Source: Candidatus Poribacteria bacterium
GTDB taxonomy: Bacteria > Poribacteria > WGA-4E > PCPOR2b
Reading direction: 5' to 3'
Length of the DNA: 64,000 nt
NCBI GenBank assembly: GCA_965208325.1
Contig: OZ242326.1
Coordinates: 3,584,001-3,648,000 of the forward strand
The position numbers were made by a program, and so were the translations under genes. Under the pieces are notes generated by a model, which was not told where the DNA came from, searched no databases, and saw nothing but the letters and a program-made list of their open reading frames with translations. Below are positions 12,000-32,313 of this stretch, piece by piece. Position 1 is the stretch's first letter. Every line of letters starts with the position of its first letter.

Positions 12000-13154
12000 C
12001 TAACTAGACCAGATTGGCGTCAAGACCTTCGTCAATTGAAGAAGGCTTTTCAGGTTGTGAGCTGGCAAGAAATGGTCGACATGCAGCAAAGCGGTACGTA
12101 TTCCTCGACAGAGCGGTTGGTAACCTTCGCATCCAAGCAAGGGGTTCAGCCAAATCACTTTGTATGCGCGGCGATGCAACATCTCCATTGCCGTCCGCAG
12201 CAAATTCGGATCGCCTCGATCCCAACCATCACTGATCAAAATTACAACGGACCTGTAGGCTGAGAATGACGGTGCAAACTCCCGATAAAAGGCGATGAGG
12301 CTTTCACCAATTTTTGTTCCGCCTGACCAATCTGGCACGACCTGTGCTATCTCACGAAGTCCGTCTTCGACTGTTTTGCGCCGCAAAATGCCGGTAATGT
12401 TGGTCAGCCGTGTGCTAAAGATTGCCGCCTCGATTTCCACAATTTCTCGCTGCATCCCGAAAATAAACTGGATAAGAAATTTCGAGTAACAGTCCATGGA
12501 AGCGCTGACATCGCAGAGCAGCAAAATTTTGTTCTTCTTAACTTTCCGGCGCTTACGGATTAGCTTCAACGGTTCACCACCGTAGGCAATGTTTTTTCGC
12601 CAACTGCACCGAAAATCGATTGTATCCCCTTTGATGCCAACTTTCCGGCGGCGGCTCAATTTGGTCGCCAGGAGGGACGCAAATTTAGCGATGATTTGGC
12701 GTGCTTCCTCAATGTCGGCCGCTGTGTAATGACTGAAATCCTTTTGGGTCAAAACATCATTAGGACTATACGCGATTGCGTCCTCTTTATCTCTGTCTTC
12801 ATCCTCATCAACCTCCCCCCATTCTCCCAGATTAAACATTTTGTCATCATCAGCGAAACTCTGCGGATCGGATGTCGACTTGGCTTCAATTGCTTCAAGC
12901 GCCAATGCCTTCAAGTCGGGGCGCGGGTGTTGCCAGAACAGATTGAAAGCGGTATCAAAAAGCGCCCGATCTGATTCACTCGCGATCAGGTTTGTTCTGG
13001 CTGCGTGGTAAAAATCGCCGCGCTGCGTTATATCAATCCATTCAAGACTTCGACAAAAGCTAATTTGGTTTGTCGTCGTCACATTTACGCCTATCTGCTT
13101 AAGCAATCGACAGAACACGGCGATTTCTTGAAGGAGGGTGCTTTGATTAACCAT
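12000..13154 (-). CDS. coxE: CoxE-like VWA-domain protein
   Basis: LCDVSASM, FSTRLT, WSGGTKIG, ILISDGWD and WLNPL motifs; adjacent to a CoxD-like ATPase. Confidence 0.88.
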   Translation of the reverse strand: MVNQSTLLQEIAVFCRLLKQIGVNVTTTNQISFCRSLEWIDITQRGDFYHAARTNLIASESDRALFDTAFNLFWQHPRPDLKALALEAIEAKSTSDPQSFADDDKMFNLGEWGEVDEDEDRDKEDAIAYSPNDVLTQKDFSHYTAADIEEARQIIAKFASLLATKLSRRRKVGIKGDTIDFRCSWRKNIAYGGEPLKLIRKRRKVKKNKILLLCDVSASMDCYSKFLIQFIFGMQREIVEIEAAIFSTRLTNITGILRRKTVEDGLREIAQVVPDWSGGTKIGESLIAFYREFAPSFSAYRSVVILISDGWDRGDPNLLRTAMEMLHRRAYKVIWLNPLLGCEGYQPLCRGIRTALLHVDHFLPAHNLKSLLQLTKVLTPIWSS

Positions 13155-14137
13155 TATAGATTGTTAAATACCCTCAACGACGCCGCTTGCGAGCGAACAG
13201 CAGATTTATCATCTCCAATTTTCTCAAAGATTGTGTCCGGAGGTAGTTTGGCTCTATTTACCAGTTCACCAATGTTAACTTCCCGTACACACTGAATGTC
13301 GTCCTGAAATTTGAAGATACAACCCAGCGTTTCCTCAACGACGTTTGAATCCAATCCATCCTTTCCCAGCGCGATGAGCGCCAGTCCCCAATCCAGCGTC
13401 TCCGCGATTCCCGGTTTTTTATAGTAGTCGCCTTCACGGAAGAACTGCATCATGTTGCAGAGCTGTTGAGCGAGTGCGTCATTGATGTGCGGCAGTTTAG
13501 TCTTGACAATCGACAATTCCTTCTCGACCGAGGGGTAATCAATCCACTGGTAGAGACACCGGCGTTTTAGGGCTTCGTGAACCTCCCGCGTTCGGTTTGA
13601 AGTCAAGACTACGCAAGGGATATGCTTCGCCTCGATAGTCCCGATTTCCGGGATTGTAATCTGAAAATCCGATAAGATTTCAAGGAGGAAAGCTTCAAAC
13701 TCGCTGTCACTTCGATCGACTTCATCAATGAGCAGGACTGGTGGAACTGCGCCATCACTCTGAATAGCTTCGAGGAGTGGGCGCTTTAACAAGAAAACCT
13801 CACTGAAAATGTCTACACCAATCCGATCCTTGTCAATTCCCCGCGCCTCGTCAATTCGTAGTTGAAGCATCTGTTTGGTATAGTTCCATTCGTACAGGGC
13901 ACTGTTCGCATCAAGGCCTTCGTAGCATTGCAGTCGGATAAGTTTCCCGCCTGTTGCATCCGCTAAAACGCGCGCCACTTCTGTTTTACCGACGCCGGAT
14001 TCCCCTTCAAGGAAGATTGGTTTGTTCAGATGACTGGCTAGGAAAACCGTTGTTGCTAACGCTCGGTCAGCAATATAGTGATGATTCGCAAGTGCGTCCT
14101 GTATTGCTTGGATGGAGTGGAACATAATTACGGCCAA
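13154..14137 (-). CDS. coxD: CoxD-like MoxR-family AAA+ ATPase
   Basis: GESGVGKT, LQCYEGLD, LLIDEVDR, TSNRTRE and KPGIAETLDW. Confidence 0.9.
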   Translation of the reverse strand: MAVIMFHSIQAIQDALANHHYIADRALATTVFLASHLNKPIFLEGESGVGKTEVARVLADATGGKLIRLQCYEGLDANSALYEWNYTKQMLQLRIDEARGIDKDRIGVDIFSEVFLLKRPLLEAIQSDGAVPPVLLIDEVDRSDSEFEAFLLEILSDFQITIPEIGTIEAKHIPCVVLTSNRTREVHEALKRRCLYQWIDYPSVEKELSIVKTKLPHINDALAQQLCNMMQFFREGDYYKKPGIAETLDWGLALIALGKDGLDSNVVEETLGCIFKFQDDIQCVREVNIGELVNRAKLPPDTIFEKIGDDKSAVRSQAASLRVFNNL

Positions 14138-14194
14138 TCCTTCATGGTAATACGGTGCGTGTTACGCATTGCCTAATTCCTAACCGGTACCCTA

Positions 14195-14800
14195 TCAGCG
14201 CACAACCACGTCCCTTAATGCTTCCAAGTAATCTTCACGGTAGTCGATGTCTCTAATCACACGATCGGTATCGACAACGACGTAATGAATGTCGTGCGCA
14301 TACTTTCGAAAAAGCGATCTGACACCGCCGTTCTCCGGTTCAAGCGCGAGGATGTCGGCGGCGTAACGGCGATCGAAAATGACGGGATGTCCTCGTCGAT
14401 TGTCATAGCTCGGAAGCGTAATCCCGCGGTCAGTTTCTGCGTACGCGTCAACTACCAGATTAATTAGATTGGATGTGATGAACGGTTGATCTACGAGCGT
14501 CAGAGCGAAGGCTTCCGCTGAATCGGAAATCGAACGCACGCCGCACTGCGCAGAGGTCAGCATCCCGCTCCGATATTCGGTATTAAACACAATCTTGACC
14601 GGTTTGTGCTCAATGCACGCTTTAACCTTTTCCGCTTCATGCCCTATTACGACAACGACGTCGTCGAGTTTCGATCCCAGCAGGTTATCAGTTACGGTTT
14701 CGATAATGGTACTTCCCTCGAATGGCAGAAGTTGTTTCGGTTCGCCGATGCGAGTGGATAGCCCGGCTGCGAGGATAATTCCCGATATTTTGGGGTTCAT
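14195..14800 (-). CDS. mocA: Molybdenum cofactor cytidylyltransferase (MocA-like)
   Basis: ILAAGLSTRIGEPKQLL, DQP, RGHPVIF and DID motifs. Start trimmed to MNPKISG. Confidence 0.82.
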   Translation of the reverse strand: MNPKISGIILAAGLSTRIGEPKQLLPFEGSTIIETVTDNLLGSKLDDVVVVIGHEAEKVKACIEHKPVKIVFNTEYRSGMLTSAQCGVRSISDSAEAFALTLVDQPFITSNLINLVVDAYAETDRGITLPSYDNRRGHPVIFDRRYAADILALEPENGGVRSLFRKYAHDIHYVVVDTDRVIRDIDYREDYLEALRDVVVR

Positions 14801-14878
14801 TTTTGTCAGAATACAGACATAATTCGGCAAAAATTCAGCGTGCAAGATTTGTGCTGCGCGTTGTCAGATTCCGATACC

Positions 14879-18433: not shown

Positions 18434-19648
18434 TTACGCCCATTGACGAAACTTGGACTTTTTTAGTATCGACAAAAAGAACCCAGCCTCAACGGAATCA
18501 GGCAAAGGTTTCAATCGCCCTTTGTCAATTTTGTGAAGCACCTTCTTAACGTCGAGTGGTGCACCTTCCGTTAGAGGATCGGTGGAACCTGAAACTATAG
18601 CGTACAATAGCCAGTCCCGTTTCTGTGGGTCTAACGTCTCGTCCGTGCCTTCCACAAATCCTTCACTTGATGTTATCGTCGTGACAAGTTCGGCAGGACT
18701 GGCATTTTCACCTGTCGTGTGTGCTTCAATTAGACTCTTTATCCATGACCGTTCAACCTTGTTAAACGTTCTGTTACACCATTGTACGACCGTATCGGTT
18801 GCTAATTGACCGTCAATCCTTTTATTGATCTTCTTAACGTTCTCATTGAATTCGCGTTTGATTGTAGTGCGCCTCTTATTTGTCGCATCACGTATAACTT
18901 TGGATTCATGAGCAACAATGCCTTCAATCCGCGTTTTAAGTTCTCTGTCTATTTTGTTTAACACCCTCTGGAATGTTGTTCTAGTCGCGCGCATTTTAGC
19001 GTCAATATCTGAGATCGTTTCAATACCTTCTTTTTGAATATCGACAACCGTTCCGCGACCTGCTTTTTTCTCATTATCAATTACGCCTTGAATACGAAGC
19101 CTTGCAGCTCTCCGCGCTTCTTCGCGCTCAACTATCGTATTGGTTTCACGGTTAAGTTTTTTTATGGATTCGTCTTGCGCTATTTTCAGTCTATTGATAA
19201 CAGCATCCGTTTCCGCCTCGATTTCGCCAACTTTTGTTCTTGTCTCCTGCTCTGATAATCCCCGTTTTCTCTGCAACTCTGACAATTCAGCATCCCGTGC
19301 TGTTTCTGTATCAATTCTTAGGTTTTCGGCATCGGCTTTCGCTTGCGCAACTTCAGGACTGGTGTGTTTTATTGCTTTGAGATCTGCCAATAACTCATTT
19401 TCAAGTGCGCGTAAATCTTCATCATGTTTCAATTTAGCCTTGTAAAGTTCGGCATCGCGTTTCTTCTCGTAAGGTGCGCTAACCTCCTCTTTTGCTTCGC
19501 GGACAATCCGAACAATTTCGTCGCTGTTATTCCTTAGGAAGTTTCCTAAATCAGCTTCCGACATCACTCTGTCGTTCATAAGTTCACCAACAAATTCGTA
19601 AAGAACTCTAAACGTTTGGCCGATACCTTCGCGTCCATGTTTCGGCAC
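18434..19648 (-). CDS. Hypothetical long coiled-coil protein with small C-terminal domain
   Basis: 404-aa ORF with a highly charged helical centre; no family recognised. Confidence 0.7.
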   Translation of the reverse strand: MPKHGREGIGQTFRVLYEFVGELMNDRVMSEADLGNFLRNNSDEIVRIVREAKEEVSAPYEKKRDAELYKAKLKHDEDLRALENELLADLKAIKHTSPEVAQAKADAENLRIDTETARDAELSELQRKRGLSEQETRTKVGEIEAETDAVINRLKIAQDESIKKLNRETNTIVEREEARRAARLRIQGVIDNEKKAGRGTVVDIQKEGIETISDIDAKMRATRTTFQRVLNKIDRELKTRIEGIVAHESKVIRDATNKRRTTIKREFNENVKKINKRIDGQLATDTVVQWCNRTFNKVERSWIKSLIEAHTTGENASPAELVTTITSSEGFVEGTDETLDPQKRDWLLYAIVSGSTDPLTEGAPLDVKKVLHKIDKGRLKPLPDSVEAGFFLSILKKSKFRQWA

Positions 19649-20002: not shown

Positions 20003-21814
20003 TTAAATGTCCCACAACAGCACTGTGCCATCGGTGCTTCCGCTGGCAAGCGTTTTTCCGTCTGGGCTAAATGCTACGCCATTCACTTGGGCCGTATGCC
20101 CGGAGAGCGTCCGGCGAGGTTTTCCCGTGCTGACATCCCATAAACGGACGGTGTTGTCCACACCCCCGCTTGCGATGTTGTGTCCATCGGGACTAAAGGC
20201 TACGCTCTCGACACATCCCTTATTCCCAGAGAGGGTGCGGAGGTGTTCGCCCGTACCAACTTTCCATAAACGGACGGTGAGGTCCCCACTCCCGCTTACG
20301 ATAGTTTGTCCATCGGGACTAAAGGCTACGCTCTCGACACGTTCCTGATGCCCAGAGAGTGTGCGGATTTGCTCGCCCGTGCTAACTTCCCATAGAAGGA
20401 TGGCGCCATCCGAGCTCCCGGTGGCGAGTGACTGTCCATCGGGGCTAAAGGCTACACTAGTGACGTGATTCTTAATCCATGTAAGTGTGTAAAGTTGTCT
20501 ACCTGTATTAACATCCCATATGATGGTTCTGGTTAAATCCCCGGTGGCGAGCATGTGCCCGTTGGGGCCAAACGCTATGTTATAGGCACTAATACAATCT
20601 CCGAGGGTGTGGAGGCGGTTGCCTGTGCTAACGTCCCATAAGATGATGTCTCCCACGCTCCCAGAAGCGAGTATCTGCCCATCTGGACTAAAAGCTACGC
20701 TCTCGACACTAGTCCGATGCCATGAAAGTGTGCGGCTGTGTCTACCCATACCAAACTCCCATAGATGAACTCTTGCGCCGAAATCACCCGTGCCCCCGCT
20801 AGCGAGCGTGTGTCCATCTGGACTAAAGGCGACACTCAGGACACTTTCCTGATGCCCAGAGAGTGTGTGGACGTGTTCGCCCGTGGCAACATTCCAAAAA
20901 CGGACGGTGTTGTCTGAGCTCCCGGTAGCGATAGTGGTTCCATCGGGACTAAAGGTTACGCTATTGACATCATGCGTATGCCCCGAGAGAGTGAAAAGAT
21001 GTTTCCCAGTGCCAACCTCCCATAAATAGATGATACCACGAGGGTAAGTTTGGCCTCCACTTGCCAGCGTGTTTCCATTTGGACTAAAGGCTAGGCTCAC
21101 ACTGTCTCCTGGAGGCCCAGAGAGGGTGTAGAGGTGTACACCGTCAACGCTCCATAAACATATGGAATTGTCCCTGCTTCTGCTAGCGAGCGTGTGTCCA
21201 TCCGGACTGAAAACTATACGTTTCAAATCGGAGGTATGCCCTCCGAGCGTGTGTATGAGTTTGCCCGTGCCAACATTCCATAAACGAACGGCATGGTCCC
21301 TCCATCCACCTGCGCTGGCGAGTGTTTCTCCACTGGGACTAAATGATATACTGACGACACCACCCGTATGCCCCGAGAGGGTACGGACGTGTCCGCCTGA
21401 GCCAACATCCCATATACGGATGGTACCGTCATGGCTTCCGCTAGCGATGATATTTCCGTCCAGACTAAAGGCTACGGTATTGACAATATCCGTATGTCCT
21501 GTGAGTGCACGGAAATGCCTACCCGTGTTGACATCCCAAAGACGGATACTTTCGTCCCAATTCCCGGTAGCGATTGTATTTCCATCCGGACTAAACGATA
21601 CGCTCAGGACATCACTCGTCGAATGCCTTGCGAGGAGAGCGAGCTCTTGACGGGTTTCAACATGATAAAGCCAAACGCCGATAGAGGTCGCGACCGCCAG
21701 ACGTGTATCGTCAGGAGAATACTGTATTTCCCTTATTATGCCTTTGCCCAAGCGGAGTTTTGCACTTTCGGGTAAACTGAATTGCGTATAGTCTAGTTCA
21801 AGCGGGTTATCCAC
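20003..21814 (-). CDS. WD40-repeat protein (about 13 repeats)
   Basis: Repeated GH...V.SVAFSPDG.TLASGS.D.TVRLWDV units; N-terminal YTQFSLPESAKLRLGKG. Confidence 0.95.
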   Translation of the reverse strand: MDNPLELDYTQFSLPESAKLRLGKGIIREIQYSPDDTRLAVATSIGVWLYHVETRQELALLARHSTSDVLSVSFSPDGNTIATGNWDESIRLWDVNTGRHFRALTGHTDIVNTVAFSLDGNIIASGSHDGTIRIWDVGSGGHVRTLSGHTGGVVSISFSPSGETLASAGGWRDHAVRLWNVGTGKLIHTLGGHTSDLKRIVFSPDGHTLASRSRDNSICLWSVDGVHLYTLSGPPGDSVSLAFSPNGNTLASGGQTYPRGIIYLWEVGTGKHLFTLSGHTHDVNSVTFSPDGTTIATGSSDNTVRFWNVATGEHVHTLSGHQESVLSVAFSPDGHTLASGGTGDFGARVHLWEFGMGRHSRTLSWHRTSVESVAFSPDGQILASGSVGDIILWDVSTGNRLHTLGDCISAYNIAFGPNGHMLATGDLTRTIIWDVNTGRQLYTLTWIKNHVTSVAFSPDGQSLATGSSDGAILLWEVSTGEQIRTLSGHQERVESVAFSPDGQTIVSGSGDLTVRLWKVGTGEHLRTLSGNKGCVESVAFSPDGHNIASGGVDNTVRLWDVSTGKPRRTLSGHTAQVNGVAFSPDGKTLASGSTDGTVLLWDI

Positions 21815-21905: not shown

Positions 21906-22544
21906 TCATCGCGGTAGTGAGCCATATTTGGCAAACTCATTTGCCACCACCTCTGCAAGCTGCCGCACAATCTGTTCTGCATCATCAATGTCAGCTCTGG
22001 AATAAGAGGTTTCAACAAGGTTACTTGAATCAAGTTCTTGAATGCCGACCGCAAATTTATTTTCTGAACGGTGATAAAAGCGAGCCAATCCTCTTTGTAT
22101 CAGTGGCATACGCAACTCCTCTTCCCAACGAAGTGAAATTTCATCAAGGAGAATCGCACGGTATCCTTGGGGGGTCATATCAACTCGTAAGATAAATCCC
22201 CCCAAACTTAAATCATGACCTAAGTTGAATCGAAGACGAACGCGGGAGTCGATAGTCGTAATCTTTTCATTTTGGAACCAATTTATGTAAGCATCAAAAC
22301 GCGCTAGGGAGTTTTGAATCCTAGGTTTATTATTTAGTCTATAACTTTGAAACAACTTCTTGGTATACTCCCTAGCTTCTTGTAAATTCCCATCTCGGTG
22401 AAAGCGACAAATTCCTTCGCGGAGACAATGGTTGTAACTTGTTCCACGAAAAGTTGTATTAACTTGTTTTGAAACCCATTGGGACGGATTTCGCTGGCAT
22501 TGGGCAAGTTGACTGTGGCTGATTTTACTATGAGCGATTCTCAT
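21906..22544 (-). CDS. Hypothetical protein, possible degenerate PD-(D/E)XK (RecB/Cas4-like) fold
   Basis: ISHSQLAQCQRNPSQW resembles the N-terminal S.S.L...CP motif; LGGFILRVD resembles G.IDR.D. ATGA overlap with the queC-like gene. Confidence 0.6.
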   Translation of the reverse strand: MRIAHSKISHSQLAQCQRNPSQWVSKQVNTTFRGTSYNHCLREGICRFHRDGNLQEAREYTKKLFQSYRLNNKPRIQNSLARFDAYINWFQNEKITTIDSRVRLRFNLGHDLSLGGFILRVDMTPQGYRAILLDEISLRWEEELRMPLIQRGLARFYHRSENKFAVGIQELDSSNLVETSYSRADIDDAEQIVRQLAEVVANEFAKYGSLPR

Positions 22545-23842
22545 GACAGAAACGGGGTTAGGGCGGCATACCGACTGAGTACGGTCCGTGCTTCCCGTGA
22601 AAATCGTCTATACATTTCAATAACTTTATCAGCGTTAAGATTAAGCGAGTATAGTTCAGGCCACTCACTCATAATGTCTTCAGCTGACGATTCCTCGATT
22701 TTTACGACGAATTCCGTCAAATCGACGATGTTCCGCCGACCTATGTCCTCAGGGTCTATTTGACTGATTTTCTCTTCCCAACAATTTCTACCATATGCTG
22801 TCGAATCTTCAAAAATTAGGAATTCAACAGCGATACGCCGAATAAAGCATGGAATACATGCGCCGCAATGTGTGATACCAGCAGGAAGACGAGAATTACG
22901 CCAACAACTGTTTGTTATCGGAATTATGTCGGGAAAGAGGTTTATGACCTTCTTGACAACTTCTGCTTTCGTCAAATGAACATACGGATTTAAAATTTGG
23001 AACGGCGCATCGAGTGCTTCCGCCAAAAAGACCTCCATACCGACTAAAATGTCTGGATGGGCTGTATGTGTGGAGAATGCTCCAATTCGACCTTGCGTCA
23101 ACGGTAGATGAATAGCCATCTGTCCATTCTCCGCGAGATAGACTATTTCGACTTGCCCCGTTCGGCGCGCTACAAGCGCACCGAGCACAAGAAAGAGAAA
23201 CGAGCGTGTTCGTTGACTACTTTCTACGTCATGGTCCAATTGGCTTGGTCCGCCGTCCCGCGAAGAAACGAAAAATCGGTAGTGCGGGAGATTCAATCCA
23301 CGATTTTTTAGTTCTGCAGCTAAATTTATCTGTGCCTGCGCTGTTGCCCGATTTCGTGTTATGTGGCTTACGAGTTGTAGCGTTTTCTCCTTTTGGCCAA
23401 ACTCGATGGCGGCAGCAAGCGAGTCCAATCCTCCGGAAAAGAGAAGTGTTCGCCCGCCTCCTTGAGTAACCTGTATATTCTTTTCGGGATCGCCAGATAC
23501 TTGTCTCAAATTAACCCTCCAGGCGTCATTTGAGAGATTTCGGAGAATCTCTTCGATTCTCGAAGTGATTGGCTGTAAGCGAATAGAATTGACAACCGGT
23601 ATCTGTAGTTCAATTCGTCTGGAAATGTCCTCTCGGACACCACGGGCCGTGGCTCGGTCTGCCGCAAAGATGGACGCACCAATCAGCAACAAATCCGATT
23701 CCAAACTCGTCAACGATCCAAATACTTTCTCAAAACGATCTTCTCCTGTAGACAGGTTCTTTCCCACTTCAAGTATGTGATCGCATTTTCCATCCTCATT
23801 GCCTCCTCGACGGACAAAATATGAAATCATTGCGTACTCCAC
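22541..23842 (-). CDS. qatC: QatC-like (QueC/7-cyano-7-deazaguanine synthase family) PP-loop ATPase
   Basis: LLFSGGLDS PP-loop; QRTRSFLF; ENG...PL...R.GA.ST.T.HP; NPY...TKAEVV; SCW...HCGACIPCFIRR Zn site; N-terminal IFAADR...RRIELQIPV extension typical of QatC rather than housekeeping QueC. Confidence 0.85.
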   Translation of the reverse strand: MEYAMISYFVRRGGNEDGKCDHILEVGKNLSTGEDRFEKVFGSLTSLESDLLLIGASIFAADRATARGVREDISRRIELQIPVVNSIRLQPITSRIEEILRNLSNDAWRVNLRQVSGDPEKNIQVTQGGGRTLLFSGGLDSLAAAIEFGQKEKTLQLVSHITRNRATAQAQINLAAELKNRGLNLPHYRFFVSSRDGGPSQLDHDVESSQRTRSFLFLVLGALVARRTGQVEIVYLAENGQMAIHLPLTQGRIGAFSTHTAHPDILVGMEVFLAEALDAPFQILNPYVHLTKAEVVKKVINLFPDIIPITNSCWRNSRLPAGITHCGACIPCFIRRIAVEFLIFEDSTAYGRNCWEEKISQIDPEDIGRRNIVDLTEFVVKIEESSAEDIMSEWPELYSLNLNADKVIEMYRRFSREARTVLSRYAALTPFLS

Positions 23843-24399
23843 TCTCCGCTAAGGGATGCAATCACGGCAGAAATATAATTCCGCCATCCTCGTGGATTGG
23901 CGGTTATGGGGGCTACGGCTCTTGCGGCATCGCGTGCGATGTTACGCAGATTTTCTTTGAGAGCGATCGAATCGGTTGTTGTTTGAATACGCCCCGAAGC
24001 CCCGACGAAGGAAGGTAAATCGCGGGAAGCATAGTATGATATAGCTTCAGCAAAAAGTTCTGCAGCAAACCCAACGGAACCGCTTTCGGTTGCTGATGCA
24101 CGTGCCAACGCTCGTTTGGCCATATCAAAAGTGAGACCTACTGCGTACTGTTCATTCAATGAATGGTTAAATGATTGAACAGCGTTTGCGGGCGGTAACC
24201 TCTGCTCGGCAATTTCACACGCCGACGCTATTAATGGATTCGCCAACTCTTCAATCAATCGTCCATCTCGATCCATAACGGCCGATCGCCAGAGTTCCTC
24301 GCTCTGTCGCTCGACAGGCCAGTTCAAGTCGCCTAATACAGCTAGCACTGGTCGCCAGTTGGGTGTATTCGGGGATGATTGATTGCTCGATGTTCCCAC
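23827..24399 (-). CDS. QatB-like helical protein (N-terminus MGTSS)
   Basis: GTG start, MGTSSNQSSPNTPNW, all-helical body, overlaps the qatC-like gene by 16 bp. The assignment rests on the N-terminal motif and gene position. Confidence 0.65.
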   Translation of the reverse strand: MGTSSNQSSPNTPNWRPVLAVLGDLNWPVERQSEELWRSAVMDRDGRLIEELANPLIASACEIAEQRLPPANAVQSFNHSLNEQYAVGLTFDMAKRALARASATESGSVGFAAELFAEAISYYASRDLPSFVGASGRIQTTTDSIALKENLRNIARDAARAVAPITANPRGWRNYISAVIASLSGEWSTQ

Positions 24400-24401
24400 G
24401 A

Positions 24402-25331
24402 CTAAACTCCGTTTTTTATACGTTCATCATCAACAGCCTGCAATTCTTTCTCAATGACGCTGAAATGAATACGTCCGCCCTTAAAAACTTGATTCCACCG
24501 GATACCATTACGAACGTCTGGTTTCCGTCTGAAAAGATTGACAGTTGCCGCAAGAACATTGGCATCAATAAAAGATAAGGGCACTTTGGCTTCAGCGCTA
24601 AATTCCAGACACAGTTCTAATAATCGAGCATCGTCCTGTTTAAATTCGGAAGAAGAGACAAGTGCCCCGTACAATTCCACATGACCACGCTGCCTGACGC
24701 GTTGCTGTTCAACATATTCAGCGAGCGGGCGTAACTTCGACCATACGACGTTAAAGCCGTCAGCAGATGCTTTTGTATCAACGACGAGGATCTGGCTTGT
24801 AGGTATTTGAGCCAGCATATCGCTGACACGACGACCACTTAAACGACCACCCAATCTTCTAACACGGCGTCCGAAAATAAATTCTAATCCGGAACAGACC
24901 AAATCCTCAAAAATTAACCACGCTTCGCCTTGTGTTTCACCAGCGGGCAACTGGTTCTTTGCGGCGGTTATCAAAGCTTGCTCGTACTCCGGGCTGAGCG
25001 CATGCCACGATGGAACCGCCCCACCAAGTGCTTCAGTAAAGTCTTCCCACGAAATTGTCTTTTCACTTGGTATGGGAGATACAATAACTGGGGTACGATT
25101 TTGATTTTGAGCGGAATGGTAAATGTCATCGATCTCCGGCTCAGACAGTTCATCAAGATCGGTGACAGCAATCAGGTATGGGATGCTCGCCCCAAGAATA
25201 TCTGTTCGTTTACATCGAATTTCGATATGACGAGGTTGCCTATGGCTACCCTCTATAGAATAGCCGGCAACGATTAGTGTCCGAGTAGCGGTTTGCGTTT
25301 GGGGGAAAGTTAAGTGACCGTCGTCCACCAT
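24402..25331 (-). CDS. Two-domain protein with C-terminal FokI/Mrr-like restriction-endonuclease domain
   Basis: FEDLV...LGG...SD...LVVDTKAS..GFN...EYVEQ...VSSSEFK. Likely start MVDDGH with AGGA RBS (ORF track starts at 25391). Confidence 0.7.
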   Translation of the reverse strand: MVDDGHLTFPQTQTATRTLIVAGYSIEGSHRQPRHIEIRCKRTDILGASIPYLIAVTDLDELSEPEIDDIYHSAQNQNRTPVIVSPIPSEKTISWEDFTEALGGAVPSWHALSPEYEQALITAAKNQLPAGETQGEAWLIFEDLVCSGLEFIFGRRVRRLGGRLSGRRVSDMLAQIPTSQILVVDTKASADGFNVVWSKLRPLAEYVEQQRVRQRGHVELYGALVSSSEFKQDDARLLELCLEFSAEAKVPLSFIDANVLAATVNLFRRKPDVRNGIRWNQVFKGGRIHFSVIEKELQAVDDERIKNGV

Positions 25332-25570
25332 TTTATTCCTGCTTGATCGAATTATCCCTTTATTGCTAAGATTCGATTCCATTTGCAACACTCAATTTGA
25401 GACGTATTCATTACAGAGCCATTCAGAAAATCTGCTAGTTAGAGAAAGATTAGTGTTGGCAGCTTTCAGTTGGGTTTTTATCGCCATTGCTATTCGCTCG
25501 CTTAATTCGTTGGTAAGGGGGAGGATATACCGAACAGATTCAGAATTTGGAGCAGAGTTCATTTATTCTT

Positions 25571-27703: not shown

Positions 27704-27806
27704 CTTTTTCCTTAAGATTATGAGGAATTACGCAAATTGAACAGAGTTCGCTCAGTCGATACTATACGGTCGCTTGATTCCACCAAATCCCTTACTCCAG
27801 CATTGC

Positions 27807-27896
27807 GCGGGGCAAGATGCCCCGCCTACAGGGCGTGCTGGCGCGTGCGGGGCAAGATGCCCCGCCTACAAGGCGTGGTGGCACACGCGGGGCAAG
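27807..27896 (-). repeat. Tandem GTAG-REP cluster, 40-bp period
   Basis: GCGGGGCAAGATGCCCCGCCTACA at 27807 and 27847, with a partial third copy at 27887. Confidence 0.8.
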
Positions 27897-27997: not shown

Positions 27998-28450
27998 CTA
28001 TCGTGTTGTTGCCGATTGTGCCAGTGTCTCAACGCCTTTAAAGAATTTGCCGATTGTCATTTTGGCTGCCCCAGTGATGATTCTTTGACCGACGCGGGCA
28101 AGTTTTCCGCCGACATTCAATTTTCCATCAAGTGCGACTCCGGTCTGATTTTGTTCGGTTTCCTTCAGTGTAAAATCGCAGAAGCCATTGATGAATCCAA
28201 TCTTGCTGGCGCCTTCGACGACGAGCCGGTATGCTAACACCGGTTGTTTGTTTTCCATCTTCACAATGCCGGTATACACGCCTTTGATTCCAGCAACGCC
28301 GACATTTAGTACCGCTTCGTAAGCGTCATCGCCAATCGATTTGAGTCCTTCACATCCTGGGATACACTGCTGCAGGTACTCAGGATGTGTAAGATACTCC
28401 CAAACTCTTGCAGGAGCCGCAGAAACTGTGTATTCGCCTTTGATTTTCAT
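27998..28450 (-). CDS. coxG: CoxG (SRPBCC family)
   Basis: VWEYL..P..L..CIPGCE and VGGKLARVGQRII; cox operon context. Confidence 0.88.
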   Translation of the reverse strand: MKIKGEYTVSAAPARVWEYLTHPEYLQQCIPGCEGLKSIGDDAYEAVLNVGVAGIKGVYTGIVKMENKQPVLAYRLVVEGASKIGFINGFCDFTLKETEQNQTGVALDGKLNVGGKLARVGQRIITGAAKMTIGKFFKGVETLAQSATTR

Positions 28451-28605
28451 GGTTACATTGCCTCAACCGGCACTGCAACTGATACCGGTATTGGCACCGG
28501 TTCATCCAATATCGCTAGATTGTATCTATCTTGGCGGGGAACTGCTAGTGCTTTCTCATACTGCTAAAGTTATCGGCTTCACTGGTGGATAGTGCAGTAC
28601 AAATA

Positions 28606-29463
28606 TCAAGAGGCGGCGCTTTCGATTGCACGATGGGTATACACTCTCGCCAAATTCTTGCGGTATGCCTCGCTGGCGTGGATATCTTCTAAAACATCAT
28701 CTACACCATCAACGGCTTTTTCTGCGGCTGCGGCAATGTTTTCAGCAATGAGGGCTTTGCCTCTCAAATCTGATTCAACGCTCGCCGCCCGGTAAGGAAC
28801 ATTAGAGACACCGGTAACGCCGACAGCAAGGTTTTGGCAAATATCTCCAACCTGCGAGAGGATAACCGCAACGCCAGTAAGGGCAAAGCCGGATGCAATC
28901 TGAGGCAGCTTCAGGTATGTCCCTTTAGTGTTTGCGCCGGGTATGGGCACGTGAATTTCAGTAATAATTTCTTCCGGCTCAATCGCGGTCGTATACAAAT
29001 CTTCAAAGAACTCGGACGCTTTAATTGAGCGTTCACCACCTTGGCCGACGGCTTTAATTTCAGCGTCGAGCGCGAGAACCGCAGCGGGCCAATCGGCGGC
29101 TGGATCGGCATGCGCAAGGCTGCCCCCGATGGTGCCTTTATTGCGAACCTGAACATCGCCAATCGCAGCCGCAGTTTGTGCAAGCAGCGGAATCTTCCGA
29201 TGCGCTAAATCTGACGTCTCAAGTTCATAGTGCGTCGTGAGTGCGCCGATAATCAATGTACCGCTCGACTCGGATATCCCCTTTAAGGCGCCGATTTGAT
29301 TCAGGTCAACGATTACATCGGGTTCAGCCAACCGCAACTTCATGGTTGGAATTAGACTATGTCCTCCGGCGAGTAGCTTTGCGCCCTCTCCATTTTCTTT
29401 CAAGAGCGCCAAGGCCTCATCAACTGACGTCGGTGCAATGTATTCAAAACTTCCCGGAATCAT
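28606..29463 (-). CDS. coxM: Molybdo-hydroxylase FAD-binding medium subunit
   Basis: LAGGHSLIPTMKLRLA and IGDVQVRNKGTIGGSLAHADPAAD. Confidence 0.92.
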   Translation of the reverse strand: MIPGSFEYIAPTSVDEALALLKENGEGAKLLAGGHSLIPTMKLRLAEPDVIVDLNQIGALKGISESSGTLIIGALTTHYELETSDLAHRKIPLLAQTAAAIGDVQVRNKGTIGGSLAHADPAADWPAAVLALDAEIKAVGQGGERSIKASEFFEDLYTTAIEPEEIITEIHVPIPGANTKGTYLKLPQIASGFALTGVAVILSQVGDICQNLAVGVTGVSNVPYRAASVESDLRGKALIAENIAAAAEKAVDGVDDVLEDIHASEAYRKNLARVYTHRAIESAAS

Positions 29464-31820
29464 TACTCACTCACTCCTTTCTTTGCGTCTTCAATCACCT
29501 GCCACACGCGATTCGGTGTCAAAGGCATCTCAATATCCTTAACGCCCAATGGAGACAAGGCGTCCACAACTGCATTGACGATGCACGCCGTTGATGCAAT
29601 TGTTCCGGTTTCACCCACTCCCTTGACGCCCATTGGATTTGCGGGAGATGGTGTCACGGTGTAGTCATTTTCAACACTTGGCACTTGTGTGGCTTTAGGG
29701 ACAGCGTAGTCCATCAGCGATCCGGTCAGGAGTTGACCGTTTTCATCGTAAACCGCGCCCTCGTACAACGCCTGGCCTAACCCTTGTGCGATGCCGCCAT
29801 GTACTTGTCCGGTAACCAGCAGCGGATTGATGATATGTCCGATGTCATCCACTGCAACATACCTCTGAATGTCGATTTCCCCAGTGTCGGGGTCAACCTC
29901 AACAATCGCAATGTGGGCACCAAACGGGTTTGTAAATTTTTCCGGTTCAAAGAAATGCGTCGCTTCAAGTCCGGGCTCGATATCCGGCGGTAGATTCACG
30001 GCGTTGTGAGCCGCAGCAGCAACAGTTGCGAACTCGACAGCTTGCGCGGGCGAACCTTGGACGAAAATTTTTCCATTTTCGAACACAAGATCGTCGGGAT
30101 TCGCTTCCAGCAAATGCGCCGTGAGTTTTGCCATTTTATCCTTCACTTGGCGCCCCGCGACAAGCATTGCTGTTCCGCCGACGGGGGTTGCCCGGCTGCC
30201 GAACGTCCCGATTCCCTGAGGCTGCCGGCCTGTGTCGCCGTGGATAACCGCAATATCATCGATATCAACTCCCAACTCATCGGCCATGATTTGGGCAAAG
30301 CTAGTTTCCTGCCCTTGCCCGTGCGGCGAAACACCTGTCAAAACAGTTACCTTTCCGGTGCGTTCAATTCGAACGGTACTGCTTTCCCAGCCGCCGCCGG
30401 CTACGCCGATTGACGGCCCAAATCCGCTGATTTCCGCATAAGTGCAGATACCAATTCCCACGTATTTTCCCTGCTTGCGACGCGCCGACTGCTGGTCACG
30501 CAGGTCGTCATAATTGATAATTCCCAACGCCTTGTTGAAAGTTTCCTGATAGTTCCCGCTGTCGTAGATGATTCCAGTCGGAATTTCAAATGGAAATTCG
30601 TCCGGCTGCGGGAAGTTCTTGAATCGGATATCTTTTGGATCCATTCCCAGTTTTTGTGCGGCAAGGTCTACCATGCGTTCGATGATGTAGGTCGCTTCCG
30701 GACGCCCTGCACCGCGATAGGCGTCTGTCGCCATTTTGTTCGTTAAGACGCCAATCAATTCCAATTTGATATTGGGGATTTTATAAGCCCCCGGAATCAT
30801 GAGATATGTCAGAACAGGAATAATCGGTGTGAGCAACTGATAGTAGGCTCCCATATTGGCGAGCAGTTTGGCGCGAAGCCCTGTGATGGTCCCGTCGTTA
30901 TTGACTGCGATCTCAACGTAGTTGATTTGATCCCGCCCGTGAATGGTTGATGTGAAGTTTTCGCCGCGTTTTTCAATCCATTTCACAGGTTTGCCGAGTT
31001 GAATCGCCAAATATGCTACCACAGCCTCTTCCGCGTACACATTAAGTTTACTGCCGAAGGCGCCGCCTACCTCAGGCGCGATGACACGGATTCTGTGTTC
31101 AGGAAAATCTACAAGAAGCGACAGGAATGTTTTGAGATGATGCGGGATTTGCGTTGACGACCAGACAGTCAATGTCCCTTCTCCGCGGAGGTATTCGGCT
31201 AAAACCCCCCGCGGTTCCATTGCAATCGGGATAAGTCGTTGATTCACAAGGCGATGCGAAATTACGTGGTCCGCTTCGGCAAAAGCCTTGTCAACATCGC
31301 CGGCATCCAACGGCATGGTAAAAGCGATATTGTCACCAAATTCTTCGAAAATAACTGGCGAGTCTGGTTCGATAGCTTTATCCATATCTACGACAACCGG
31401 TAACTCTCGGTACTCAATTTCAATCAGATCCAACGCGTCTCGGGCGATATAGGGGTCAGTTGCTACGACCGCTGCAACAGGTTCACCAACGAATCGCACG
31501 CGTCCTACAGCTAGAGCGGGGTGATCGGGAATTTTAAGACCCTCAATTTCCGCGGCGCAGGGAACTGAACTGACTTTTTCCCTAATATCCTCTCCGGTGA
31601 TTACCGTAACAACGCCGGACAAACGCTTCGCCGCTTCCGTATCAATATTTTCGATTTCTGCGTGCGCGTAGTCGCTGCGGAGAAATGCACAGTGCAGCGT
31701 ATTTACCATTTTAAGGTCATCGACATAATGAGATAGCCCCTGGATTAACCTTGGATCTTCGCGCCGCTTAATGGGAGCGCCAATCAACCGGCTGGGTCCT
31801 GCTAGAGTCGCCATCAGCAT
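29463..31820 (-). CDS. coxL: Molybdo-hydroxylase large subunit (form II CoxL-like/aldehyde oxidoreductase)
   Basis: RREDPRL, VGGAFGSK, AYRGAGRPE, HGQGQET, HGGIAQGLGQAL and KGVGE. Confidence 0.9.
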   Translation of the reverse strand: MLMATLAGPSRLIGAPIKRREDPRLIQGLSHYVDDLKMVNTLHCAFLRSDYAHAEIENIDTEAAKRLSGVVTVITGEDIREKVSSVPCAAEIEGLKIPDHPALAVGRVRFVGEPVAAVVATDPYIARDALDLIEIEYRELPVVVDMDKAIEPDSPVIFEEFGDNIAFTMPLDAGDVDKAFAEADHVISHRLVNQRLIPIAMEPRGVLAEYLRGEGTLTVWSSTQIPHHLKTFLSLLVDFPEHRIRVIAPEVGGAFGSKLNVYAEEAVVAYLAIQLGKPVKWIEKRGENFTSTIHGRDQINYVEIAVNNDGTITGLRAKLLANMGAYYQLLTPIIPVLTYLMIPGAYKIPNIKLELIGVLTNKMATDAYRGAGRPEATYIIERMVDLAAQKLGMDPKDIRFKNFPQPDEFPFEIPTGIIYDSGNYQETFNKALGIINYDDLRDQQSARRKQGKYVGIGICTYAEISGFGPSIGVAGGGWESSTVRIERTGKVTVLTGVSPHGQGQETSFAQIMADELGVDIDDIAVIHGDTGRQPQGIGTFGSRATPVGGTAMLVAGRQVKDKMAKLTAHLLEANPDDLVFENGKIFVQGSPAQAVEFATVAAAAHNAVNLPPDIEPGLEATHFFEPEKFTNPFGAHIAIVEVDPDTGEIDIQRYVAVDDIGHIINPLLVTGQVHGGIAQGLGQALYEGAVYDENGQLLTGSLMDYAVPKATQVPSVENDYTVTPSPANPMGVKGVGETGTIASTACIVNAVVDALSPLGVKDIEMPLTPNRVWQVIEDAKKGVSE

Positions 31821-31839
31821 AACCTCCTTTCATTCTTCA

Positions 31840-32313
31840 TTAACTCTGCATTTTTTGTGCAGCATATTGAACAGCATTAACGATATGCTGATAACCGGTA
31901 CAGCGGCAAAGATTTCCTTCTAATCCGTGCCGAATCTCGGCTTCCGTAGGATTGGGATTACGCTCAAGCAACTGACTTGCCGCCATAATCATGCCGGGTG
32001 TGCAGAAACCGCATTGTAAACCGTGGCATTCCCAAAATCCTTCCTGGATTGGGTGCAAATCTCCGTTTTCCGCCAAACCTTCAATGGTGTTGATTTCCGC
32101 GCCGTCCGCCTGAATTGCCAGCATTGCACATGTTTTGACAGCCATGCCATCCACGATGGCTGTGCATGCGCCGCATATGCTGGTTTCACATCCAATGTGT
32201 GAACCGGTCAGGCCGGCAACGTCTCGGATGAAGTGGATTAACAGCATTCGAGGTTCAACCTCAGCGGTGTAATTGGTGCCATTAATTTTCGTGTTAATGA
32301 CTTTCTTACTCAT
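31840..32313 (-). CDS. coxS: Molybdo-hydroxylase (2Fe-2S) small subunit
   Basis: [19 protein letters not shown] and GNLCRCTGY. Confidence 0.93.

Follow-up and report, generated by a model that had tools for sequence, protein, structure and literature searches.

Introduction

Does the small protein encoded beside a QueC-like enzyme present its own N-terminal glycine to that enzyme, and to what kind of system would such a pair belong? The question is raised by a 64,000-nt stretch of DNA from a Candidatus Poribacteria bacterium (contig OZ242326.1, positions 3,584,001 to 3,648,000; hereafter the window), in which a 190-aa open reading frame (ORF), here called B190, starts with Met-Gly-Thr-Ser (MGTS) and overlaps a gene for a QatC-type paralogue of QueC. 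QatABCD is reportedly an anti-phage system, described by Gao et al. in 2020. Given the conservation of its N-terminus, its synteny with the enzyme gene, and a controlled complex prediction, B190 is probably an N-terminal-glycine acceptor for the QatC-type enzyme. It is most likely the functional equivalent of QatB, and the four-gene cassette that encodes it most likely a Qat anti-phage system variant that is absent from current catalogues.

A reading of the window made from the sequence alone (the sequence-only reading) had noted that defence-associated QueC paralogues (QatC and Cap9) are reported to attach 7-deazaguanine to the N-terminal glycine of a partner. For Cap9 this holds, as N-terminal deazaguanylation of the CD-NTase is established (Wassarman et al., 2025, 10.1101/2025.04.06.647259). 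For QatC it is only partly right. Gao, Wassarman and Kranzusch were unable to reconstitute the QatC reaction and called it unresolved; they reported that a Thr-x-Thr motif in QatC takes the place of the Tyr/Asp pair with which QueC and Cap9 recognize the base, which in their view suggests a different substrate, and that QatB G2D, or deletion of the stretch with Pro16 and Trp18, abolishes defence (PMC13279940). Oh and Bae found by Edman sequencing that Escherichia coli QatB starts at Gly, and called the first substrate of QatC unidentified (PMC13376578). An NDG-modified GTSKAY peptide of E. coli QatB was detected by liquid chromatography-tandem mass spectrometry (LC-MS/MS), while the intact mass came without the modification (PMC13639016). 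QatBC structures are available as 9zee/9zef and 9vlk/9vll, and these three structural papers from 2026 leave open how QatBC blocks phage and which adduct QatC places on QatB (PMC13279940, PMC13376578, PMC13639016).

The general principle of N-terminal-glycine tagging was already published in 2026, so our finding does not open a new category. What sets the cassette apart from the Qat systems in current catalogues is the family of its acceptor, the branch of its enzyme, and the identity of both accessory genes. We found no description of the four-gene cassette in the literature searched; the QatC-cluster neighbourhood table of PMC13329287, which lay outside the search, might list it.

A conserved N-terminal tail on a well-supported start

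The ORF lies at exactly the coordinates and on the strand proposed by the sequence-only reading (Table 1), and the reverse complement from position 24399 downwards reads GTG GGA ACA TCG AGC AAT CAA TCA TCC CCG, which translates as (M)GTSSNQSSP, as had been stated. No in-frame start precedes this GTG in the ORF, 2 nt separate it from the TAG (24404-24402) that ends the upstream gene, and a GGAG lies 7 nt upstream; for these reasons we consider the start well supported. In the genome loci of B190 relatives described below, the equivalent ATG or GTG was the earliest in-frame start in 13 of 18, and in the 16 loci with both ends placed, the distance from the start to the stop of the upstream gene ranged from a 1-nt overlap to a 7-nt gap. 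One acidobacterial acceptor gene (L018:6985-7010) has GCG at the start position (…GTA GTC CCT GCG GGC ACC TCG…), with no ATG, GTG or TTG in frame upstream of it; possible explanations are a sequencing error, a dead copy, and an unusual start.

Searching a collection of 5.8 billion proteins with B190 returned 184 relatives at E ≤ 0.001, 120 of which were listed. These 120 were nearly all 185-191 aa long, with identities down to 43%, and none of them carried a precomputed Pfam family. An (M/V/L)GTS start was present in 114 of the 120, and [ST]P at positions 9-10 together with W at position 15 in 113. A profile search against 1.84 billion representatives reached 296 clusters (50% identity) at E ≤ 0.001, 244 of them at E ≤ 1e-10, and 112 of 117 further full-length (≥183 aa) representatives at 50% clustering began with (M/V/L)GTS. 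With genome loci from five phyla in addition, the acceptor family is not rare.

Exceptions were of several kinds. In P0092, P0111, P0223, and P0239, the GTS motif lies just inside a probably over-extended start; the tail is absent in P0089 (a truncated entry), P0170, and P0213; the N-terminus differs in P0212; and substituted tails occur in P0018 (MNTS), P0025 (MGNS), and P0116 (MGHS). Among the 120 listed relatives, the six exceptions are P0092, P0111, P0089, P0018, P0025, and P0116. In an alignment of 51 family sequences (A1), G2, S4, P10, and W15 were invariant and T3, N6, S9, and P13 were present in at least 90%, and the mean frequency of the top residue was 0.74 at positions 1-16 versus 0.58 elsewhere. 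The sequence-only reading had itself named lack of MGTS conservation and a start located elsewhere as outcomes that would overturn it; given the conserved tail, the earliest in-frame position of the start, and its abutment on the upstream stop, neither is what we observed.

The same reading had described a flexible tail ahead of a helical body, and the AlphaFold2 model of B190 (51 sequences; mean predicted local distance difference test score (pLDDT) of 93.8, predicted template-modelling score of 0.90) agrees with that description. Residues 1-12 had no secondary structure in the model, with pLDDT below 50 at residues 1-3, and were followed by an all-helical body of nine helices, the first of which begins at residue 13.

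The neighbouring enzyme and its predicted complex with B190

The product of gene 3 was correctly recognized as QueC-like, and we could place it more narrowly as a QatC-type enzyme with the catalytic SGGLDS, the Thr-x-Thr-x-His-Pro motif, and the Cys cluster retained. Its ORF from GTG 23842 encodes 433 aa; the likely start, as in relatives, is ATG 23830, giving 429 aa. The overlap with B190 that had been noted from the sequence is thus 16 nt with the first start and 4 nt (ATGA) with the second. The protein matched PADLOC QatC at 2.9e-55 and NCBIfam QatC (NF041925) at 2.6e-61 (207.7 bits), the latter over model positions 9-389 of 398 and so across the N- and C-terminal extensions, whereas Pfam QueC matched the C-terminal part only. 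It also matched the solved QatC chains 9zee_B (3.7e-28) and 9vlk_A (3.6e-26). In 433-aa numbering, S136/D140/S141 align with S156/D160/S161 of Pseudomonas aeruginosa QatC (9zee_B), and T258/T260 with T278/T280, the string Thr-His-Thr-Ala-His-Pro falling onto T278/T280/H282. Across 16 enzyme sequences (alignment A4), LLFSGGLDS, STHTAHP, QRTRSF, ENG, and the Cys cluster C...HCGxCxPCxxRR were invariant. In one related locus (L006:7637-9070), the QatC-like ORF extends some 48 residues further at the C-terminal end.

We predicted the complex of the enzyme in its 429-aa form (16-row alignment) with B190 residues 2-190 (51 rows), ATP and Zn included. The interface score ipSAE was 0.92 in each of three runs, as compared to 0.00 for the best of three controls, with a contact agreement of at least 96% and a partner pLDDT of at least 91. 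In calibration, 116 of 157 solved complexes and 2 of 215 mismatched pairs scored this high, counts that hold only roughly here because we used custom alignments and added ligands. On the B190 side, the predicted interface comprises tail residues 2-10 and the conserved block 118-148 (including Y122, S125, R126, D127, L128, P129, S130, and K148), together with R96 and R100. On the enzyme side, it comprises residues 234, 241, 243-254, and 256, that is, the loop with T254/T256 of Thr-x-Thr in 429-aa numbering, and residues 355-396, the C-terminal helical extension with invariant R365/R366. The sequence-only reading had asked whether such a prediction would bring the N-terminus into the QueC active site: a complex was predicted, with the tail in an interface that includes the Thr-x-Thr loop, although the output lists the interface residues of each protein and does not pair those of the tail with those of the enzyme. 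The two enzyme surfaces involved are those that hold QatB in the solved QatBC structure from P. aeruginosa (PMC13279940).

Table 1. Cassette features in window coordinates, with the evidence used for each.
Feature	Position	Strand	Basis
Gene 1 (X), FokI-like PD-(D/E)XK nuclease C-terminal half	24402..25391	-	Invariant motif, Atlas clusters
Shine-Dalgarno-like GGAG	24407..24410	-	Read from the sequence; 7 nt 5' of the B190 GTG
Gene 2 (B190), proposed N-terminal-glycine acceptor	23827..24399	-	190-aa helical protein, GTG start
Proposed acceptor tail of B190, (M)GTSSNQSSPNTPNW	24355..24399	-	Codons 1-15; alignment A1 and position frequencies
Gene 3, QatC-type QueC paralogue (PP-loop ATP pyrophosphatase)	22541..23842	-	PADLOC, NCBIfam, and PDB matches
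Gene 4 (Y), RecB/Cas4-like PD-(D/E)XK fold, degenerate motif	21906..22544	-	212 aa; AlphaFold2 and Foldseek

A four-gene cassette in five phyla

We compared 18 genome loci encoding B190 relatives, from Poribacteria, Bacteroidota (Cyclobacteriaceae bacterium), Acidobacteriota, Nitrospirota (Nitrospira), and Gemmatimonadota (Gemmatimonadales), and scanned the surroundings in 15 of them. In all 18, a QatC-like gene directly followed the B190 homologue and a homologue of gene 1 preceded it. A homologue of gene 4 followed the enzyme gene in 16 of 17 assessable loci, being absent from L006; L017 stops at a contig edge. The order FokI-like nuclease, B190 acceptor, QatC-like enzyme, RecB/Cas4-fold protein was therefore shared by 16 of the 17 assessable loci across the five phyla, with starts and stops that overlap or abut throughout. 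Together with the conserved MGTS and the predicted complex, this coupling and synteny of the pair in 18 of 18 loci argues for B190 as the substrate partner of the enzyme, as had been proposed.

The surroundings varied from locus to locus. A transposase or integrase gene was adjacent to the cassette in 5 of the 15 scanned loci (L001, L003, L005, L006, and L010), restriction-type genes (Mrr/NucS or HsdM) were nearby in 2 (L014 and L018), an element bearing ArdC lay beside the cassette in L010, and ImuA/ImuB/DnaE2-like genes were the neighbours in L008. Given this variation and the transposase, integrase, and restriction-type genes, the arrangement fits a mobile defence cassette. In L006, the QatC-like gene is followed by two ORFs, of 454 and 402 aa, that have no assignment. 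Frame breaks were seen in two loci: genes 1, 3, and 4 in L016 each run over two frames, as does the acceptor gene in L017. Decay of the copies or errors in long-read assembly could explain this.

Four canonical plasmid loci examined for comparison encode an NTPase, QatB, QatC, and QatD in this order, with the P-loop NTPase upstream of QatB. The cassette has neither QatA (a KAP-family P-loop NTPase) nor QatD (TatD) and instead a FokI-like nuclease and a RecB/Cas4-fold protein: gene 1 had no family match and carries a nuclease motif, and the fold of gene 4 is RecB/Cas4-like, not a TIM barrel. In L012, alone among the 15 scanned loci, a TatD_DNase gene (L012:9490-10335; 6.6e-47) comes directly after the cassette, its start falling 11 nt short of the RecB/Cas4-like gene's end; it may be a housekeeping copy, as the locus lies beside dnaN and rnpA.

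Comparison with QatBC and with type IV CBASS

The pair resembles the canonical QatB-QatC core in four respects. The enzyme is a QueC-family PP-loop protein with N- and C-terminal extensions, SGGxDS, Thr-x-Thr-x-His-Pro, and a Zn-binding Cys cluster; the gene for the partner sits immediately upstream of the enzyme gene and is translationally coupled to it; the partner starts with MGTS followed a few residues on by Pro-x-Trp; and the two proteins form a 1:1 complex, here predicted, through the active-site loop and the C-terminal helices of the enzyme. In 46 canonical QatB sequences (alignment A6), M1, G2, T3, S4, G9, L14, and P16 were invariant and W18 was present in at least 90%. Comparison of A1 with A6 by hhalign gave a single match, of B190 residues 1-16 with QatB residues 1-19 (MGTS...P.W; E 0.0031, probability 10%), in which P13/W15 of B190 align with P16/W18 of QatB. 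An earlier 25-column hhalign match to four canonical QatB sequences (probability 5%) was spurious and was superseded by the 46-sequence run.

Beyond the tail, the two acceptors differ. The B190 family is about 190 aa long versus 270-290 aa for canonical QatB, and B190 itself had no PADLOC, Pfam, or NCBIfam match (0 NCBIfam families at E ≤ 0.1), whereas all 120 canonical QatB relatives listed carry PF28083. Both are all-helical, with nine helices in the B190 model versus the ten-helix fold of solved QatB. Foldseek of the B190 model against the PDB gave no row at E ≤ 0.001 (top row E 0.64), and a wide VIA-align comparison gave a best Z of 4.5, within the uninformative range for helical proteins; neither listed a QatB chain, in libraries whose inclusion of QatB is unconfirmed. 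IFT122B, the lone row of the PDB profile search (E 0.19), was taken as a chance match. Based on the profile comparison, then, B190 and QatB share a tail and a genomic and physical relation to the enzyme, and no detectable body.

In type IV CBASS (cyclic-oligonucleotide-based antiphage signalling system), the QueC-like enzyme Cap9 ligates a group onto the N-terminal glycine of its partner CdnD after removal of Met, as proposed for gene 3, and the acceptor tail enters the active site, as predicted here. The cassette differs in lacking a CD-NTase, the TGT-like Cap10, and a cyclic-nucleotide effector; PADLOC and Pfam gave no CD-NTase or TGT family match in the six proteins scanned around the enzyme. 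Additionally, gene 3 has the QatC-type Thr-x-Thr and extensions rather than the Tyr/Asp base-recognition residues of Cap9, and the acceptor motif of B190 is MGTS, not MGGS.

Proposed mechanism

Bacterial methionine aminopeptidase removes Met1 when Gly comes next. Given that Gly follows Met1 in B190, we infer that its Met1 would be removed as well. The helical body would then dock through the invariant YYASRDLPS (122-130) and R96/R100 against the QatC-specific loop before Thr-x-Thr and the C-terminal helical extension, as predicted by the complex model, in which the 12-residue tail would put the Gly2 amine into the PP-loop active site. There, the enzyme would adenylate a carboxylate, which the Gly2 amine would attack to give an amide bond. 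If the Cap9 reaction is a guide, the carboxylate may be 7-carboxy-7-deazaguanine, and the adduct on B190 would by the same analogy be a deazaguanine. The precursor is plausibly available in the host, since the genome encodes QueC (258 bits), three PTPS/QueD-family matches, Tgt, and a full-length QueE-like radical-SAM match (78 bits, below its cut-off); the TGT matches lie away from the cassette.

The last steps are speculative. The tagged complex and both nuclease-fold proteins might act jointly against DNA that invades the cell, with the FokI-like product of gene 1 as the likely cutter and the Cas4-like product of gene 4, which lacks (D/E)xK, rather as a DNA-end binder or adaptor. Cutting by FokI-like nuclease domains requires two of them to pair. 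As for the suggestion of the sequence-only reading that the modification gates the nuclease next door, it is conjecture, and no result here supports it. More broadly, MGTS...Pro-x-Trp might be a portable acceptor tag for QatC-type ligases, carried on at least two helical scaffolds with no detectable kinship, with tagged B190 licensing the FokI-like nuclease; we hold this idea only tentatively. If true, the cassette would be the first Qat-type system with an explicit and assayable effector, and hence a route to how the QatBC core acts on phage.

The chemistry of the enzyme and the tail of the acceptor are retained in the cassette while everything else has changed, and it therefore separates the essential parts (tail, PP-loop, and docking surfaces) from the interchangeable ones. 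B190 is compact and modelled with confidence, has a tail of just 12 residues, and is encoded beside a nuclease with an intact catalytic signature and a second nuclease-fold protein. It would make an easier in vitro system, since chymotrypsin would release a short N-terminal peptide, up to Trp15, that is well suited to mass spectrometry. The system would escape current catalogues, as NCBIfam names neither core protein and PADLOC recognizes the enzyme only.

Weighing the acceptor reading against its alternatives

Several observations weigh against B190 as an acceptor in a Qat-like defence system, and the proposal itself is a computational one, built on sequences and models. Regarding the acceptor, the NCBIfam QatB model NF041924 had no match over the whole 4.7-Mb genome (8 candidates scored), PADLOC QatB matched none of the 51 B190 members at E ≤ 10, PDB sequences (including QatB 9vll_A) gave no match to B190 by single sequence or by profile, and in the hhalign run the helical bodies did not align at all, the tail being the only match. 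The B190 tail is also short, at about 12 residues versus 30-90 in canonical QatB (PMC13279940). Regarding the enzyme, gene 3 scored below the NF041925 equivalog cut-off (207.7 versus 280 bits), and at the positions where Tyr/Asp of Cap9 and QueC read deazaguanine it carries Thr-x-Thr, as QatC does. Among 72,556 plasmids, it had 135 QatC-like matches, all below 60% identity, and the 25 listed were only 26-33% identical to it; given this low identity, gene 3 stands on a branch of its own within the QatC type. Likeness of the enzyme to solved QatBC structures may account for part of the complex score. Regarding the effector, Pfam FokI_cleav_dom (PF09254) matched no gene 1 member at E ≤ 5, and the FokI assignment is drawn from a sequence motif and from weak or indirect matches. 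Finally, the cassette sits amid cox-type dehydrogenase genes in the window, with no integrase in the ORFs scanned at 7522-36236, no tRNA at 10000-35000, and no other defence gene by PADLOC in the six cassette-side proteins.

B190 might instead be a QatB orthologue diverged past recognition, with its disordered tail mostly lost, and the cassette an ordinary Qat system with swapped accessory genes, which we regard as possible but rather unlikely. Such descent would account for the same N-terminal motif with similar spacing (P13/W15 versus P16/W18), for the shared position immediately before the QatC gene, with coupling to it, and for an all-helical protein predicted to contact the same two enzyme surfaces. 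However, the 51-versus-46 profile comparison aligned nothing past residues 1-19, the lengths are about 190 versus 270-290 aa, and PF28083 is on 120 of 120 listed QatB relatives while no Pfam family is on any of the 120 listed B190 relatives. A comparable doubt concerns the chemistry: B190 might bind the enzyme with its N-terminus unmodified, as a pseudo-substrate or regulatory plug, or carry something other than 7-amido-7-deazaguanine. We give this no great weight, even though Thr-x-Thr stands in place of the Cap9/QueC Tyr/Asp (PMC13279940), two groups came away without a first substrate for QatC (PMC13279940, PMC13376578), and E. coli QatB had an intact mass without NDG (PMC13639016). Against it stand the NDG-modified GTSKAY peptide found on E. 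coli QatB by LC-MS/MS (PMC13639016), the PP-loop serines, which are invariant here and essential in canonical QatC, the precursor pathway in the host, and the invariance of Gly2, which fits a nucleophile better than a plug.

Two further readings set aside the proposed function or the gene itself. The cassette could serve maintenance or addiction of a mobile element, or repair around two PD-(D/E)XK-fold proteins, rather than phage defence; the window holds no defence island, the L008 neighbours are ImuA/ImuB/DnaE2-like, and of the four cassette proteins QatC alone matches PADLOC. We nevertheless judge this improbable, as the only characterized relatives of the enzyme act in phage defence, the context varies from locus to locus (transposases, integrases, the ArdC element, restriction genes) in a manner typical of defence cassettes, and the spread across five phyla is patchy. 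That the MGTS start is a wrong start codon or part of a chance ORF is hardly credible: GTG is a rarer start than ATG and another in-frame GTG occurs at codon 18, but the family spans 296 clusters at E ≤ 0.001 with the tail as its best-conserved part, and the start is the first in frame in 13 of 18 loci, abuts the upstream stop, and follows GGAG at 7 nt. We therefore retain B190 as the probable N-terminal-glycine acceptor of the QatC-type enzyme.

Nuclease-like products of the flanking genes

The sequence-only reading had placed a nuclease next to B190, and the adjoining gene 1 does carry an invariant D...DxK signature. Its longest ORF encodes 329 aa; the likely true start, as in relatives, is ATG 25331 (309 aa). 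The protein had no Pfam, PADLOC, or NCBIfam match, and its N-terminal half is unassigned. Across 16 sequences (alignment A2), E142, D171, D185, and K187 (309-aa numbering) were invariant in a pattern typical of PD-(D/E)XK enzymes. The nearest clusters in the language-model Atlas were FokI cleavage-domain proteins (score 0.97, 218 of 256 features), with the FokI_cleav_dom annotation in 87-95% of their members. In a profile comparison with the PDB, vvDaKA of gene 1 aligned with IVDTKA of FokI (1fok), a weak match (E 0.46) that sets D185/K187 against the DTK of FokI. RmuC was weakly matched by 5 of the 16 members (best 3.4e-4). As in FokI and other type IIS PD-(D/E)XK domains, an invariant acidic residue is followed by D-x-K in a hydrophobic strand; gene 1 differs in having no recognizable FokI DNA-recognition domain, and the E of 0.46 is its sole direct sequence match to FokI.

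Gene 4, a second nuclease-fold gene that the sequence-only reading had not mentioned, shares 4 nt with the end of gene 3. No sequence family was found for its product, and the only PDB profile match, APE0525 (E 0.1), was rejected; its identity came instead from the predicted fold (AlphaFold2, pLDDT 92.1). Foldseek matched 15 PDB chains at E ≤ 0.001, led by the AdnA nuclease domain (4.8e-7, TMq 0.71) and an ACE1 Cas4-family protein (2.1e-6), then Dna2, AddAB, and Cas4; those listed were RecB-family or Cas4-like nuclease domains and one DinG helicase. In alignment A3, D122 was invariant and the consensus of the strand after it was GYRAILLG, with no conserved (D/E)xK, no invariant Lys or Cys, and no Cys cluster. 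Given that the (D/E)xK motif and the Cys cluster are not conserved, catalysis by this protein is doubtful. It resembles RecB/Cas4-like nucleases in fold (Foldseek 4.8e-7 to 9e-4), in an N-terminal helix motif, and in an invariant Asp after Gly-x3-Arg, and differs from them as a stand-alone protein of about 200 aa without (D/E)xK or a four-Cys iron-sulfur cluster.

Genomic surroundings in the window

Two groups of cox-type genes lie in the window. One, at 12003-14845, comprises a CoxE-like VWA gene, an AAA ATPase gene, and a MobA-like gene; the other, at 28001-32313, comprises genes for CoxG, an FAD-binding subunit, a large molybdopterin subunit, and a 2Fe-2S subunit. Since the cassette and its neighbours part the two groups, the stretch between them may be inserted. 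G+C was 0.42-0.49 in the cassette versus 0.52-0.54 in some flanks, a mild dip too weak to call a genomic island by composition. Promoter and terminator scans gave counts within shuffle expectation, and among 8 sequencing runs containing the stretch none was listed as RNA. Downstream of the cassette, by 91 nt, a gene at 20003-21814 (minus strand) encodes a 603-aa protein made up nearly entirely of WD40 repeats (12 by Pfam), and the next gene (18434-19648, minus strand) encodes a charged 404-aa protein of no family, possibly coiled-coil by composition; neither is conserved beside the cassette in relatives. Between FAA-hydrolase-like and CoxG-like genes, a 40-bp unit is repeated 2.3 times with 88% matches (27806-27896), and this repeat yields several overlapping short ORFs with repeated peptides.

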